The position numbers and the translations under genes were made by a program. From IMG/VR virus record IMGVR_UViG_2541047713_000005: DNA of 4,646 nucleotides, one strand, 5' to 3'. Within the stretch, counting starts at the first letter, position 1, and each line of letters opens with the position of its first letter. The notes below the pieces were generated by a model, which was not told the DNA's origin, did no database searches, and saw only the letters and a list, made by a program, of their open reading frames with translations. The stretch is from a virus. Its lineage: Duplodnaviria; Heunggongvirae; Uroviricota; Caudoviricetes. Positions 1 through 4,646 of the stretch are shown here, piece after piece.

Positions 1-1506
1 TCTGCAAGCGCGGCGGCTGCTTCTGCCACTGCATCAGCTAACAGTCAAAAAGCAGCAAAAACCAGTGAAACCAACGCAAAGGTGAGCGAAACAGCGGCTG
101 CGAACTCAGCGAAAGCATCGGCAGCAAGCCAGACGGCAGCTAAAGCAAGCGAAGATGCAGCCAGAGAGTACGCAAGCCAGGCTGCGGAGCCGTATAAATA
201 TGTCTTACAGCCGCTGCCTGATGTGTGGATACCATTTAACGATTCGCTGGATATGATTACGGGCTTTTCGCCGTCATATAAAAAAATTGTTATTGGTGAC
301 GATGAAATAACGATGCCTGGCGACAAGATTGTTAAGTTTAAACGTGCATCGAAAGCAACCTATATTAACAAATCTGGTGTGCTGACAGAGGCTGCCATTG
401 ACGAGCCACGATTTGAACGTGATGGCCTGCTTATTGAGGGGCAAAGAACTAATCTTCTGCTTAATTCAACAAATCCATCTAAATGGAATAAGTCAGGCAA
501 TCTGGAACTCACAGAAATATCCACGGATTCTTTTAATTTTACTTATGGGAGATTTACTGTAAAAGATACTCTTATTGGTCAGACAAGTGCTATTAATATC
601 GTAACGGTTTCTGGCAGTAAAGGGTTTGATGTCACAGGTGATGAAAAATATGTGACCATTTCATGCCGTGTAAGAAGTGATGTTGAAAATGTAAGGTGTC
701 GTTTAAGATTTGAACACCATGATGGTTATACTTACACTTTTTTGGGAGATGCTTACCTCAATTTATCAACACTTGTAATTGATAAAGCTGGTACTGCTGC
801 AGACCGTATTATTGCAAAGGCTGTAAAAGATGAGGTTACTGGTTGGATTTTCTATCAGGCTACAATTAATGCACTAGATACAGAGAGCATGATTGGTGCG
901 ATGGTTCAATACGCTCCTGTAAAAGGTTCAGGCACAGCATCTGGAGACTATCTGGATATCGCAACTCCACAAGTGGAAGGTGGATCAAGTGCTTCGTCAT
1001 TTATTGTAACTGATATAACTGCAAGCACTCGCGCAAGCGATATGGTGACAGTCCCAATCAAGAATAACCTTTATAATCTTCCTTTTACGGTTCTTTGTGA
1101 GGTACATAAGAACTGGTATAAAACGCCAAATGCAGCGCCACGTGTTTTTGATACCGGCGGTCATCAAACCGGAGCGGCTATTATTCTTGGCTTCGGTCGT
1201 TCAACAGATTACGACGGATTTCCTTATTGCGATATTGGAGGAGCTAACAGACGGGTAAACGAAAACGCATCGCTTGAAAAAATGGTTATGGGGATGCGTG
1301 TAAAGTCAGAGCAGTCTACGTGCTCAGTAAGTAACGGGCATATATCCAGCGAAACAAAAACCACATGGTCCTGTATTCAGAACACCGCAATTATCCGTAT
1401 TGGAGGCCAGACTACAGCCGGGTTACGTCATTTATTTGGTCATGTCAGGAATTTCAGAATATGGCACAAGGCATTGACTGATGCTCAGGTGGGGGAGTCA
1501 ATCTAA
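1..1506 (+). CDS. Phage tail fibre protein, 5'-partial (start lies upstream of window); Ala/Ser-rich repeat shaft, distal domain ending in a LamG/concanavalin-A-like signature
   Basis: Frame 1 is open from nt 1 (SASAAAASATASANSQKAAKTSETNAK...) with no stop until TAA at 1504-1506. The 'M' at 82 in the ORF track is an in-frame GTG, not a real start. The N-proximal A/S/T/E/K-rich imperfect repeats are typical of side-tail-fibre shafts. The C-terminus ...LRHLFGHVRNFRIWHKALTDAQV resembles the C-terminal consensus of LamG-like lectin domains (recalled, not searched). GC-rich for the first ~200 nt, AT-rich afterwards. Confidence 0.85.
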   Translation, partial: SASAAAASATASANSQKAAKTSETNAKVSETAAANSAKASAASQTAAKASEDAAREYASQAAEPYKYVLQPLPDVWIPFNDSLDMITGFSPSYKKIVIGDDEITMPGDKIVKFKRASKATYINKSGVLTEAAIDEPRFERDGLLIEGQRTNLLLNSTNPSKWNKSGNLELTEISTDSFNFTYGRFTVKDTLIGQTSAINIVTVSGSKGFDVTGDEKYVTISCRVRSDVENVRCRLRFEHHDGYTYTFLGDAYLNLSTLVIDKAGTAADRIIAKAVKDEVTGWIFYQATINALDTESMIGAMVQYAPVKGSGTASGDYLDIATPQVEGGSSASSFIVTDITASTRASDMVTVPIKNNLYNLPFTVLCEVHKNWYKTPNAAPRVFDTGGHQTGAAIILGFGRSTDYDGFPYCDIGGANRRVNENASLEKMVMGMRVKSEQSTCSVSNGHISSETKTTWSCIQNTAIIRIGGQTTAGLRHLFGHVRNFRIWHKALTDAQVGESI

Positions 1507-1787
1507 TGAAAGATTTAACACTCAAATTTGCCGACAGGGCCGACTTTTCGGCCTTTATGGATAGCACTGGCTATTATGATGACGAGTCGATGCAGGATGA
1601 TATTCTTATTGACGTGATAGGTAACGTGTACAAAGAAACCGGAGAACTGACTGAAGATGGCGAACCGGTATGTGTTAAGGAAGACGGATATTTTGTAAAC
1701 GTGCGCATCATTAATGATTCGCAAATATCGTCATTATTCGATGAATACGTGGTTGCTGTTGAGCATCAACTTCGTGGCTGGATGTGA
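1506..1787 (+). CDS. Hypothetical small acidic protein (93 aa), translationally coupled to the upstream fibre gene; possible fibre chaperone or adaptor
   Basis: ATG at 1506-1508 overlaps the fibre stop (TAATG). Uninterrupted 93-codon frame, acidic composition (many D/E). The downstream gene starts 10 nt after its TGA stop, giving an operon-like arrangement. No family recognised by eye. Confidence 0.6.
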   Translation: MKDLTLKFADRADFSAFMDSTGYYDDESMQDDILIDVIGNVYKETGELTEDGEPVCVKEDGYFVNVRIINDSQISSLFDEYVVAVEHQLRGWM

Positions 1788-1796
1788 GGAAGAAAA

Positions 1797-2837
1797 ATGG
1801 CTACATCGACAGTAATTCCTGATGACATCAAAACGCAAAAATCCGACGTTAGCAAATTAAAAAACGATCAAGGAAGCTACGCAACAAAATTATATGTAGA
1901 CAGCAAAGATAAATTCGTTGGTGACTGCAATGTAATCTATGATCAAAAAACATTGCCAACAACTGGAACTATATTTGGCGGTAAGCTCCGCTTAACTCAC
2001 AGGACTGGTGGAACGGAGGACGCGTATAGTGAACTATATCCCAAAAAAAATATAGATGGTACTAGTAACACAATGGCGCGCCTTAACCTGAACGATAACG
2101 GGACAAACATTTGCTGGGACTTTACCAACCTTTATGGCGGTACGATGATTTTTCCCGGTAGCGGCGGATACCTCAAAATGGGTAACTGCCTTATGTCATA
2201 CAGCAAGCGTGGAAGTAACGCGCTTATTAAATTTGATTACACCGACACATTACAGATCAAATATGCCAATCATGGGTCAACCATGACATTAAACACACAG
2301 GGAACCGCTTATGCTGGTGTTACTGCTCAATTGTGGGGCAACACCAGCCGTCCTGTTGTTTATGAAGTCGGTGTTGATGGTGGCGCTTATATGTTCTATG
2401 CGCAGAAAAATACCGATAACACCTATATGTTAAGCGTTAATGGTGCATGTCATGCCACCGCATTTAACCAGCATTCCGACCGGGATCTGAAAGACAACAT
2501 TCAGGTGATCGATAATGCAACCGACCGCATCCGTAAAATGAACGGCTATACATACACGCTTAAAGAAAACGGTATGCCCTATGCTGGTGTCATTGCACAG
2601 GAAGCTCTGGAAGCAATCCCAGAAGTTGTAGGTTCCGCAATGAAATATCAGGACGGTGCAAGCGGATCGGAAGGTGAAGAAGGTGAACGTTATTACACAG
2701 TAGATTATTCTGGTGTTACTGGCTTGCTTGTTCAGGTAGCCAGAGAGTCAGACGACAGAATAACAGCACTGGAAGAAGAAAACGCAGAATTAAGACAAAG
2801 ATTATCTGCAATTGAGGCGGCGCTTGCGTCTAAATAA
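1797..2837 (+). CDS. Short tail-fibre tip / receptor-binding protein with C-terminal intramolecular chaperone (peptidase S74-type) auto-cleavage domain
   Basis: SD GAGGAAG at 1786-1792, 6 nt before ATG 1797. Residues ~170-215 (AQLWGNTSRPVVYEVGVDGGAYMFYAQKNTDNTYMLSVNGA) resemble the conserved distal segment of P2 gpH / T4 gp37-type fibres (from memory). Residues 227-232 S-D-R-D-L-K (Ser codon at 2475-2477) have the Ser/Lys i,i+5 spacing of the endosialidase-chaperone catalytic dyad. The C-terminal helix ITALEEENAELRQRLSAIEAALASK is typical of this domain. Confidence 0.85.
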   Translation: MATSTVIPDDIKTQKSDVSKLKNDQGSYATKLYVDSKDKFVGDCNVIYDQKTLPTTGTIFGGKLRLTHRTGGTEDAYSELYPKKNIDGTSNTMARLNLNDNGTNICWDFTNLYGGTMIFPGSGGYLKMGNCLMSYSKRGSNALIKFDYTDTLQIKYANHGSTMTLNTQGTAYAGVTAQLWGNTSRPVVYEVGVDGGAYMFYAQKNTDNTYMLSVNGACHATAFNQHSDRDLKDNIQVIDNATDRIRKMNGYTYTLKENGMPYAGVIAQEALEAIPEVVGSAMKYQDGASGSEGEEGERYYTVDYSGVTGLLVQVARESDDRITALEEENAELRQRLSAIEAALASK

Positions 2838-2843
2838 TATTAA

Positions 2844-2864
2844 GGGGCCGAGCGCCCCGTTTTA
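2844..2864 (+). terminator. Putative intrinsic terminator after the fibre operon
   Basis: GGGGC (2844-2848) / GCCCC (2854-2858), an all-GC 5-bp stem with a 5-nt loop, followed by G-TTTT-A (2859-2864), 7 nt downstream of the TAA stop at 2835-2837. The stem is short, hence moderate confidence. Confidence 0.45.
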
Positions 2865-2879
2865 TTGGGTAGGATGAAA

Positions 2880-3173
2880 ATGGATATAACACCTTTCCTT
2901 CATGCGCTTTGTGCTGTGGCTGCGCAGCTACTGATTGGTCTTTTTACCGGGAACTGGGCTTACGGGGCGATAGCCGGTTGTACGTTCTTCATTGCGCGTG
3001 AACACACCCAGGCAGAATATCGCTGGATTGAAATGTTCGGGCATGGCAAGCGAATGAATATGCCGTGGTGGGGCGGTTTTGATCCGCGCGCGTGGGATGT
3101 GGCAAGCCTGATGGATTTTGCTGTGCCGGTGGTGGCGTGTCTGCTGGTCTGGCTGTTGGTTAATCGTGGGTGA
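2880..3173 (+). CDS. Hypothetical small integral membrane protein (~97 aa, 2-3 predicted TM segments)
   Basis: ORF open from TTG 2865; in-frame ATGs at 2874 and 2880. ATG 2880 has an AGGA (2871-2874) 5 nt upstream and is preferred. Hydrophobic stretches FLHALCAVAAQLLIGLF, AYGAIAGCTFFIA and LMDFAVPVVACLLVWLLV. About 55% GC, unlike the AT-rich fibre genes. The antisense ORFs over this region lack such features. Confidence 0.55.
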   Translation: MDITPFLHALCAVAAQLLIGLFTGNWAYGAIAGCTFFIAREHTQAEYRWIEMFGHGKRMNMPWWGGFDPRAWDVASLMDFAVPVVACLLVWLLVNRG

Positions 3174-3183
3174 AAAAAGGTGA

Positions 3184-3312
3184 GCTGTATATGCAACGGA
3201 GGAAGAAACTCCGTTGCTGGAAGCCTGGAAGAAGTATCGGGTGTTGCTGAACCGTGTTGATACATCAACTGCACCTGATATTGAGTGGCCTACGAACCCT
3301 GTCAGGGAGTAA
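3184..3312 (+). pseudogene. tfa: 3' remnant of a tail fibre assembly gene (tfa); no start codon, ~42 codons
   Basis: Frame 1 reads [42 protein letters not shown] directly after a TGA at 3181-3183, with no in-frame ATG/GTG/TTG. It matches the C-terminus of lambda-type Tfa (…[26 protein letters not shown]…, recalled). Relative to copy 2 it carries a 9-nt in-frame deletion. Confidence 0.75.
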
Positions 3313-3326
3313 TCATTGGGATTATG

Positions 3327-3359
3327 CCGCAGCACGTCTTAAGCAAGAACGTGCTGCGG
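3327..3359. terminator. Perfect 11-bp inverted repeat (hairpin) between convergent genes; possible bidirectional terminator or RNA-stability element
   Basis: CCGCAGCACGT (3327-3337), 11-nt loop, ACGTGCTGCGG (3349-3359), which are exact reverse complements. It lies 15 nt after the tfa-remnant stop and 8 nt beyond the methyltransferase stop (TAG, complement of 3367-3369). No U-tract immediately follows on either strand, so it is not a canonical intrinsic terminator. Confidence 0.4.
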
Positions 3360-3366
3360 TTGGATG

Positions 3367-4035
3367 CTATTTTTTCCCTGAAGCGGAAAACATTACTACA
3401 GTACCTTGAACCTTGGTTTTAACATTCTCGAAATGCTCTGAGAGTATATGTGTTAAGCCTTCTTCGGAATCTTTTGTGTTTGAAAAGATGCCTTTCTGAT
3501 TGTAAATGCGCATCAGTTTTTGACCGAAGCTATTGTGCACAACTCCATCGCCAAGAATTGTGGCTCCGTATAGAGTTCCATCGTCAGTTAAGGCCTGCGC
3601 CGCATTGCGTATTACACAGCTTTTTGTAGATATATTTCCAGGCAGGCAGTGAAGAAGGTAAAACATGGAAATGGAATCAAATTGACCATGTAACGCCGCG
3701 GGATAAGGTTCAAAAACATCATGGCTAATTTTATGTTTAATTTTTGATTCCCCAGCCCTTGTAGATGCCGCGTTCAGGCTAGCTTCGTTCAAATCCATTA
3801 AAGATATCAGACTACTCTCAGGTACGTGAGTAAGGTAAAACCCAGTTCCAACACCAATATCCAGATGGTTGTTACCTACATGTTCCAGAAAGTGTGGAAG
3901 AAGGTGTTCCTTTGTAGGACATCCCCATGCAAGCCGATTTGATACTCCCAAAACCCACCAGTCATAAAGCTTTAGGGTAAGTGGTGTGTAAATTTTAGCC
4001 CCATCATCTGTGTTTTTTTTCATTGATTTCACCAT
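3367..4035 (-). CDS. Class I (Rossmann-fold) SAM-dependent methyltransferase, probably not a DNA methyltransferase
   Basis: Motif I LDIGVGTGFY (the hh-D-h-G-x-G-x-G SAM-binding loop), a downstream acidic residue in ISLMDLNE, and a motif II-like FDSISMFYLLHCLP. No D/N/S-PP-Y/F/W motif IV. Stop TAG is the complement of 3367-3369. Two candidate starts: ATG at 4035 (no SD) and ATG at 4023 (GGTGA 5 nt upstream), the latter giving 218 aa and more likely. About 40% GC. Confidence 0.85.
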   Translation of the reverse strand: MVKSMKKNTDDGAKIYTPLTLKLYDWWVLGVSNRLAWGCPTKEHLLPHFLEHVGNNHLDIGVGTGFYLTHVPESSLISLMDLNEASLNAASTRAGESKIKHKISHDVFEPYPAALHGQFDSISMFYLLHCLPGNISTKSCVIRNAAQALTDDGTLYGATILGDGVVHNSFGQKLMRIYNQKGIFSNTKDSEEGLTHILSEHFENVKTKVQGTVVMFSASGKK

Positions 4036-4091: not shown

Positions 4092-4361
4092 ATGCTGCCG
4101 CAGCATAGCGATATTGAAATAGCCTGGTATGCTTCGATACAGCAGGAGCCGAATGGCTGGAAGACCGTCACCACACAGTTCTACATCCAGGAATTCAGTG
4201 AGTATATTGCGCCACTGCAGGATGCTGTAGATCTGGAAATCGCAACGGAGGAAGAAAGATCGTTGCTGGAGGCATGGAATAAATATCGGGTATTGTTGAA
4301 TCGTGTTGATACATCAACTGTACCTGATATTGAGTGGCCTGCAAATCCTGTCAGGGAGTAA
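4092..4361 (+). CDS. tfa: Tail fibre assembly protein, N-terminally truncated (89 aa; corresponds to the C-terminal half of lambda-type Tfa)
   Basis: SD AAGGGG 4-5 nt before ATG 4092. The C-terminus [53 protein letters not shown] aligns closely with the lambda Tfa C-terminus (…[53 protein letters not shown], from memory). Lambda-type Tfa is ~190 aa, so the N-terminal domain is missing. Confidence 0.8.
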
Positions 4362-4412
4362 TCATTGGGATTATGCCGCAGACACGTCGTATGCAGGAAC
4401 GTGCTGCGGTTA
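4219..4412 (+). repeat. Direct repeat copy 2 (tfa 3' end plus degenerate hairpin)
   Basis: Partner of 3178..3362. The hairpin at 4376..4409 keeps both arms but has one bulged A (4382) and a loop that differs at 3 of 11 positions. Confidence 0.85.
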
Positions 4413-4475
4413 GTTTGTGAGCTTTCGATAGTGGTTGTTATTTTTGCCCTTATTTGTTCCGGAGGCCATGGTTCA

Positions 4476-4646
4476 ATGGTCCGTCTGCCCCCTGTGGTGA
4501 TGTCAGCAAAATCAGCCACTGCGCGAACCACAATAGCCCGGGAAGATGCTGAAGATCACCAGGTAAAGCTGTCAGCGCAGAAACTGGAAGAACTGCTCGC
4601 ATCAATGGTTAAGGATGAGGTTGATCGCAATGATGGGATTTATTGA
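4476..4646 (+). CDS. Hypothetical small protein (56 aa from ATG 4476; the frame is open from TTG 4365)
   Basis: Frame ends at TGA 4644-4646. The 5' part of the maximal ORF overlaps the hairpin and tfa repeat, so an internal start is more plausible: ATG 4476 (GGAGG at 4461-4465, 10-nt spacing) or ATG 4500. The product is charged and probably helical (…AQKLEELLASMVKDEVDRNDGIY). No family recognised. Confidence 0.4.
   Translation: MVRLPPVVMSAKSATARTTIAREDAEDHQVKLSAQKLEELLASMVKDEVDRNDGIY

Follow-up and report, generated by a model that had tools for sequence, protein, structure and literature searches.

A LamG-type beta-sandwich domain that ends a lambda-type side tail fibre, followed by a small companion gene and a second fibre gene

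In this work, we analysed a 4,646-nucleotide (nt) stretch of DNA from a tailed virus (Caudoviricetes; IMG/VR record IMGVR_UViG_2541047713_000005), which is called the window below. Its left end carries the 3' part of the gene of a lambda-type side tail fibre (Stf-like), 501 codons and the stop codon (nt 1..1506, plus strand). We have found that nt ~1042-1503 (plus strand), i.e., the last ~155 residues of this fibre, encode a two-sheet beta-sandwich of the LamG/pentraxin type, a jelly roll of ~150 amino acids (aa). LamG-like jellyroll modules are known on viral adhesins, and the domain is a large member of this kind that scores below threshold and had escaped annotation until now. It forms the second half of a mobile two-domain head. 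Downstream of the fibre gene lie a gene for a 93-aa protein (p93) and a gene for a second fibre.

The hallmark of the domain is the motif GLRHLFGHVRNFRIWHKALTDAQV (nt 1420..1491, plus strand), which covers the loop, the last beta-strand and the short helix of the LamG fold and is followed by GESI and the stop codon. The window sequence alone matches the Laminin_G_3 family (PF13385) with an E-value of 0.0011 and 19.6 bits, under the gathering score of 27.6 bits, and of the 151 profile positions only 98-150 are matched, precisely the stretch of the GLRHLFGHVRNFRIWHKALTDAQV motif. All ten close homologues that we compared match Laminin_G_3 (best E-value 8.9e-6), as do 40 of 50 diverse family members (best E-value 4.1e-13); for one of the ten, P0016, at 44% identity, PF13385 had already been assigned by precomputation. 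When a 168-aa piece was used for a word-indexed search, most of the homologues that came back were fragments. A profile search run exhaustively over 1.84 billion representative proteins gave 1386 relatives at E <= 0.001, in which a linker (TRAxD) and the LamG domain are combined, mostly at the C-terminus. The typical relative has the conserved linker SSYIPT.G.A.TRAAD, followed by a domain of ~150 aa that closes with LFGHIRNLRIWH.ALTD.QIK and, as a rule, also closes the protein. When the family profile (A3) was compared with the PDB, the best match was the S-layer LamG-like protein 4qvs (E-value 1.6e-6, profile positions 30-166). CRP, BoNT/D (the HCN of a botulinum toxin) and the CBM40 of NanA matched at ~6e-4, and a SAP-like pentraxin, laminin LG and neurexin were among the further matches. 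In the alignments, the motif GLRHLFGHVRNFRIWHKALTDAQV falls on LHGMIDDFRIFDRALSADEIK of 4qvs and on the corresponding strand of CRP. The PDB search with a shallow alignment (A2) found the linker of the protein Rcc01080 only and no LamG structure. GLRHLFGHVRNFRIWHKALTDAQV is the most conserved part of the family, and the first ~50 and the last ~40 residues of the domain are better conserved than the middle ~75. Such a variable middle is what may be expected of a receptor-binding module and is no proof of one.

The predicted structure agrees with the profile matches. The first AlphaFold2 model, which was built on an alignment of 10 sequences, was unusable, with a predicted local distance difference test score (pLDDT) of 58. 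The model on the alignment of 50 sequences is an all-beta sandwich with a pLDDT of 87.1 and a predicted template modelling (TM) score of 0.83; it has a strand (147-155) and a helix (161-167) within the GLRHLFGHVRNFRIWHKALTDAQV region. Foldseek comparison of this model with the PDB returned the LG domain of PAPP-A, CRP, SAP, PTX3, agrin LG, CBM40, BoNT HCN and SHBG with probability 1.0 and TM scores of 0.64-0.74. Independent BFVD models of homologous fibres, from the phages 'rolling' and EdH4, superpose on it at TM scores of 0.87-0.89, and the next viral matches in BFVD are proteins annotated as LamG-like jellyroll or concanavalin A (ConA)-like. The fold assignment stands because LamG/ConA-like matches were found and the predicted fold is a jelly-roll sandwich. 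Thus, the LamG-type jelly roll that a previous sequence-only reading of the window had proposed for the fibre C-terminus is borne out. Of the profile evidence that it had called for, the single sequence stayed under the threshold and the family profile delivered LamG/pentraxin structures. Its span of nt 1000-1506 needs trimming, since nt 1000-1041 are the end of the preceding domain and a T-R-A-S-D linker. It had also spoken of a distal tip. The LamG domain is indeed the last domain of the fibre; it is half of a head, not a stand-alone tip.

The same reading had called the gene a long tail fibre, and this name does not hold. Frame 1 is free of stop codons from nt 1 up to the TAA at 1504-1506; the listing of open reading frames (ORFs) gives only 82..1506 since the left edge of the window cuts off the 5' end of the gene. 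The whole window is shared, at ~97% identity, with the lambdoid phage 2G7b (Nesevirus), whose orthologue of the fibre is gp22, a 'tail protein' of 791 aa, which stands where lambda has stf, after the gene of the central tail fibre (J) and lom. The window fibre itself falls into PHROG 1419 ('tail protein', E-value 5e-268). The Stf anchor domain PF08400 (prophage tail fibre N-terminal) lies outside the window and is present in the 791-aa orthologue and in full-length homologues. By the position of gp22 and by PF08400, the gene is that of a lambda-type side tail fibre, and a T4-type long tail fibre is excluded. Nt 1..201 (plus strand) encode Ala/Ser-rich shaft repeats (SASAAAASATAS...), as read from the sequence, with only weak matches to the shafts of other fibres and of depolymerases; the very start of the window (1-60) reads SASAAAAS... 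in the same manner. A DNA match to phage ESCO3 begins at nt 208, which marks a module boundary.

The rest of the fibre ahead of the LamG domain (nt 202..1041, plus strand) consists of the N-terminal segment of the head (PLPDVWIPFNDSLDM...), a domain like the head-spike fibre of gene transfer agents (GTA) and a linker. The NCBIfam model GTA_spike_fiber (NF048003) matches aa 144-345 (nt 430-1035) with an E-value of 8.8e-16 and 58.9 bits, against a cut-off of 36. The conserved linker SSFI..T.T.ATRASD, with its T-R-A-S-D core (nt ~1018-1041, plus strand), closes the spike-fibre region and precedes the LamG domain. A profile of the region upstream of LamG (A6) found Rcc01080 of RcGTA in the PDB (6tb9 chain F3, E-value 3.3e-38), followed by the structural protein (triplex) gp45, the baseplate wedge 2 protein gp46 and the tail fibre gp17, each at ~1e-16. 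In the cryo-electron microscopy structure, Rcc01080 is a single subunit with only residues 2-10 resolved (PMC7296036). Stand-alone heads of 400-464 aa, which start with the PLPDVWIPFNDSLDM/PDVW motif and end with the LamG domain, occupy baseplate and fibre positions of myoviruses. The mobile unit is therefore a head of ~430 aa that starts near aa 68 (PLPDVWIPFNDSLDM), and LamG is its second half.

Both domains of the head are mosaic. We compared 120 full-length homologues and found that their spike-fibre alleles fall into classes of ~95%, 68% and 54% identity to the window, and their LamG alleles into classes of ~95%, 78% and 46%. These alleles occur in all combinations, such as a spike-fibre domain at 54% with LamG at 99%, or 94% with 47%. 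Therefore, the two domains are exchanged independently at the linker. The segment ahead of the swapped domains (aa 64-143) is 90-100% identical in most homologues and 71-80% in about ten. Specificity could lie in the spike-fibre domain, in the LamG domain or in both.

The domain is widespread. A tblastn search found LamG in 205 phage records, which include lambdoid phages (phage 21 among them), Dhillonvirus, Drexlerviridae, Queuovirinae, T5-like and rV5-like phages, and the head module is carried on many different fibre anchors (lambda Stf, T5-like, Drexlerviridae, rV5-like and P2-like). The DNA of LamG and p93 together (nt 1036-1787) matches 1219 of 5426 complete Escherichia coli genomes, at about two places per positive genome, and these copies are annotated with no mention of LamG. 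RefSeq names the fibre by its N-terminal or spike-fibre domain only, and the 93-aa gene is a 'hypothetical protein'. The scan of IMG/VR with an alignment gave only close relatives (86-100% identical), which are useful for linkage and are a biased sample where conservation is concerned. Two metagenomic contigs (L086 at 3-5246 and L088 at 1665-7248) carry three consecutive genes each, all of them LamG-ended. The genes of L088 share the N-terminal motif MA.RRTTV.L, which suggests arrays of alternative heads on one attachment site. Literature searches on LamG or PF13385 tail fibres gave mentions in genome annotation only, and no published assay for the LamG-ended fibre family turned up. A Cronobacter tail-fibre paper concerns an S74-type fibre, different from the LamG head module.

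The gene of p93 (nt 1506..1787, plus strand) starts with an ATG that overlaps the TAA of the fibre gene (TAATG). This arrangement is not peculiar to the window. A p93 homologue starts at the fibre stop codon in every one of the 84 loci with downstream DNA, out of 85 loci, and the LamG and p93 pair was also found, at 36-54% identity, in Warwickvirus swan01, the T5-like BUCT632, phage 21 and the rV5-like APECc02. By tblastn, p93 is present in 181 phage records, compared with 205 for LamG, with the same spread of taxa. Distant p93 homologues were also found behind LamG-ended proteins: in a P2-like myovirus, between gpI and a gpH-like fibre, in a second myovirus and in one more contig. The protein belongs to PHROG 1361 ('unknown function') and neither its sequence nor a profile of it matched anything in Pfam, NCBIfam or the PDB. 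Its gene takes the place expected for tfa. The protein does not match PF02413, the Tfa (Caudo_TAP) family; it may be a functional analogue of Tfa. We infer that p93 is most likely an assembly factor or a small structural partner of the head, and it is a candidate for a new family of fibre chaperones or adaptors. LamG and p93 alleles covary loosely. LamG is 88-89% identical to that of the window in the loci L079-L085, where p93 is 42-43% identical, and the values for phage 21 are 42% and 54%, respectively. On these values, p93 need not be matched to the LamG allele.

The second fibre gene (nt 1797..2837, plus strand) encodes a protein of 346 aa (PHROG 4563, tail fibre) that consists of an N-terminal peptide, a variable body and a C-terminal S74 chaperone. 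Peptidase_S74 (PF13884) matches aa 227-278 (nt 2475-2630) with an E-value of 5.8e-14 and 52.6 bits, against 22; the chaperone region extends to the C-terminal end, and its S-D-x-x-x-K motif is present as HSDRDLKDNI. The sequence-only reading had described this gene as a second, unrelated tip. It is a genuine S74 fibre with no similarity to the first fibre; its N-terminal peptide is shared, and this leads away from an independent tip. The peptide is MATSTVIPDDIKTQKSDVSKLK (nt 1797-1862, plus strand). Its first ~15-22 residues, MAT(S/V)T(V/T)IPxDI(K/T)xLK, open at least five different proteins (346, 234, 340, 224 and 579 aa), and each gene with such a peptide adjoins the p93 gene directly downstream of it. 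It was also found in L002 (from position 3194), L003 (from 4759) and L074 (from 3961). In distant examples, the first 15 codons have 62-67% DNA identity and the conserved residues carry synonymous changes. The low DNA identity and the synonymous changes indicate constraint at the protein level. The peptide is thus probably a docking plug, and its conservation on at least five bodies makes it probable that the second fibre docks on the first fibre or on p93. This suggests that the two make up one fibre, branched or serial, and do not stand apart on the tail. Lateral fibres that are branched or serial are known in T5-like phages (PMC4728585; PMC11990801), though not with the LamG head module.

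Not all relatives have this gene. The window and most of its close relatives carry the second fibre. In eight loci, phage 21 included, a diverged p93 is followed directly by the gene of a membrane protein, and rV5-like phages have the LamG tip and p93 with no second fibre. The membrane protein gene of phage 21 adjoins p93, and in the window the S74 fibre stands between the two, which suggests that the second fibre is an inserted optional cassette.

Putting these data together, we lean, with some confidence, towards a reading in which LamG is one of two lectin-like domains of a glycan-binding side-tail-fibre head, p93 is a dedicated accessory of this head, and the second fibre is plugged on. 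The head would bind reversibly to a surface glycan (O-antigen, lipopolysaccharide core or capsule). The variable middle of the LamG sandwich would set the specificity together with the exchangeable spike-fibre domain. The head would do without a Tfa chaperone, with p93 as an assembly factor or small structural partner, and the S74 fibre would be attached to the distal assembly via its N-terminal peptide of ~15-20 aa. The outcome would be one branched fibre with two binding specificities. Carbohydrate binding by LamG may be supposed from the fold and from the neighbouring domain: RcGTA head-spike fibres bind capsular polysaccharide (PMC7296036; PMC10218006), and tagged Rcc01080 binds cells in a capsule-dependent manner (PMC10218006). 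Recognition of two receptors, as the sequence-only reading had it, is plausible.

Several points weigh against this glycan-binding scheme. The window sequence alone, as described above, stays under the Laminin_G_3 gathering score. LamG domains can bind proteins, rather than sugars, and also small ligands. The shafts of Stf are trimeric, unlike the head fibre of RcGTA. That fibre is a single subunit (PMC7296036). The 80 IMG/VR loci had been picked by their similarity to LamG, which accounts for part of the LamG conservation among them. Two distant contigs hold several LamG-ended genes each, with a single shared p93-like gene or none at all, and p93 is therefore not required one-to-one.

The chief alternative is that LamG, alone or with p93, is mainly a structural socket for the exchangeable distal fibre, and that the distal fibre binds the receptor while LamG binds no glycan. 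We regard this as rather unlikely. Such a role would fit with the strict linkage of p93 to the LamG end, with the recurrence of a conserved N-terminal peptide on five or more unlike distal bodies, and with LamG conservation of 92-100% at loci where the spike-fibre domain retains no more than ~54% identity. LamG/LNS domains are also known protein-binding modules (neurexin and laminin are among the structure matches), and some T5-like phages have a distal receptor-binding protein joined to a long proximal fibre (PMC11990801). However, fibres with LamG and p93 exist in phage 21, in rV5-like phages and in L079-L085, where there is no second fibre to be held. P2-like and other myoviruses also have LamG-ended proteins, and there the next gene brings a baseplate-attachment domain of its own. 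In addition, there are LamG alleles as low as 46% next to a spike-fibre domain that has not changed; a pure socket would not be expected to vary in this way. Both the docking peptide and p93 (48% identical) of L074 are unlike those of the window, whereas LamG stays at 92%. In L079-L085, p93 falls to 42-43% and LamG stays at 88-89%, with no second fibre. From these two patterns it follows that the docking partner may be p93 rather than LamG. A socket role and a glycan-binding role could coexist. A broader proposal is that the LamG end and p93 make up a widely shared socket for any distal fibre with the plug M-A-T-x-T-V-I-P-x-D-I-x-x-L-K, and that p93 represents a new class of adaptor or chaperone replacing Tfa; we offer it tentatively, as possible but doubtful. 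If it is true, lambdoid, T5-like and Drexlerviridae phages would swap or add a second receptor-binding protein through a plug-and-socket system.

Two further explanations concern the domain itself. As a member of the ConA-like superfamily, it might be an enzyme, a glucanase or polysaccharide lyase that degrades the O-antigen or capsule. We consider this very improbable and have set it aside, since there is no catalytic family among the top matches: in sequence and in structure they are all non-catalytic (LG, pentraxins, CBM40, BoNT HCN), no glycoside hydrolase or lyase family scores in Pfam, and the conserved residues lie in structural strands at both ends of the domain. Finally, the motif might be a chance resemblance and the C-terminus no LamG domain at all. 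The Pfam match of the single sequence, which does not reach the gathering threshold and extends over only a third of the profile, and the poor first model on the shallow alignment (pLDDT 58) would allow this. The matches across the family and the later model have already refuted it, and we give it practically no weight next to the glycan-binding head.

The remainder of the window lies beyond the fibre genes. Directly after the second fibre, there is a terminator-like GC-rich hairpin with a T-run, GGGGCCGAGCGCCCC GTTTTATT (nt 2844..2858, plus strand), which scores also on the minus strand and is likely the end of the fibre operon. The next gene (nt 2880-3173; the ORF is listed from a TTG at 2865) encodes a small protein with predicted membrane segments. 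It is 96% identical to phage 21 gp24, a 'putative membrane protein' with two transmembrane domains. A class I S-adenosylmethionine-dependent methyltransferase of 222 aa is encoded at nt 3367-4035 on the minus strand, between two truncated tfa remnants. It is flanked by a direct repeat of 140 nt (nt 3193-3332 and 4242-4381, 90% identical), each copy of which comprises the final ~39 codons of a gene for tail fibre assembly (Caudo_TAP) and ~20 nt past its stop codon. The first copy is a bare 39-codon tfa remnant. The second copy ends an ORF of 89 aa (nt 4092-4361) that matches only positions 75-130 of the 131 positions of the profile. Thus, no intact tfa is left in the window, only truncated remnants. 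The methyltransferase gene occurs in some relatives only (2G7b and ev243 in the phage collection, and 10 of 80 IMG/VR loci), and it looks like a moron-type cargo gene. An ORF of 93 aa at nt 4365-4646 has no convincing family match. The last ~235 nt of the window (4412-4646) have no match in 2G7b and match 'Escherichia phage 204576'.

These data are of use for the engineering of side tail fibres and for the prediction of host range. Boundaries lie at nt ~208 (start of the head), ~1018-1041 (TRASD linker) and 1797-1862 (plug peptide), and the independent recombination of the spike-fibre and LamG domains can be used for the same purposes. We believe that p93 and the plug peptide are the most promising lead and are worth following up. 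The fold assignment mainly improves annotation, because LamG-like modules on phage receptor-binding proteins were already known.

Compared with known systems, Laminin_G_3 domains have the same two-sheet sandwich and the C-terminal strand motif G-x-I-x-x-h-R-I-W/Y-x-x-A-L-S/T-x-x-E/Q-I, and many members of the family of the window domain, unlike the window sequence alone, do exceed the Pfam threshold. The motif of the window differs from that consensus in having RN for DE, and it is preceded by the family-specific IGGQT.G.RHLFGH. Pentraxins (CRP, SAP, PTX3), the LG domain of PAPP-A and sialidase CBM40 are only 10-17% identical to the LamG domain of the window and occur in another oligomeric context. 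Rcc01080 of RcGTA is homologous to the domain upstream of LamG and to the linker (SS.IPT...TRAAD). It has no LamG domain, since only ~40 residues follow its linker, and its place is on the capsid, where it occurs as one subunit (PMC7296036), whereas the head of the window is carried by a tail fibre. In the Stf/Tfa system of lambda, the fibre gene likewise stands behind J and lom and the N-terminal anchor is the same, and tfa remnants are found downstream in the window. In place of the distal Stf tip and tfa, however, the window has the head of spike-fibre and LamG domains, p93 and the S74 fibre. In the T5-like phages DT57C and DT571/2, LtfA and LtfB form branched lateral fibres, the second of which is proposed to be attached by its N-terminus, and both have recognition domains (PMC4728585). 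The window resembles them in having two consecutive fibre genes; a similar attachment may be supposed. LtfA and LtfB belong to another sequence family, LtfA ends in an S74 chaperone and not in LamG, and no 93-aa gene has been described beside them.

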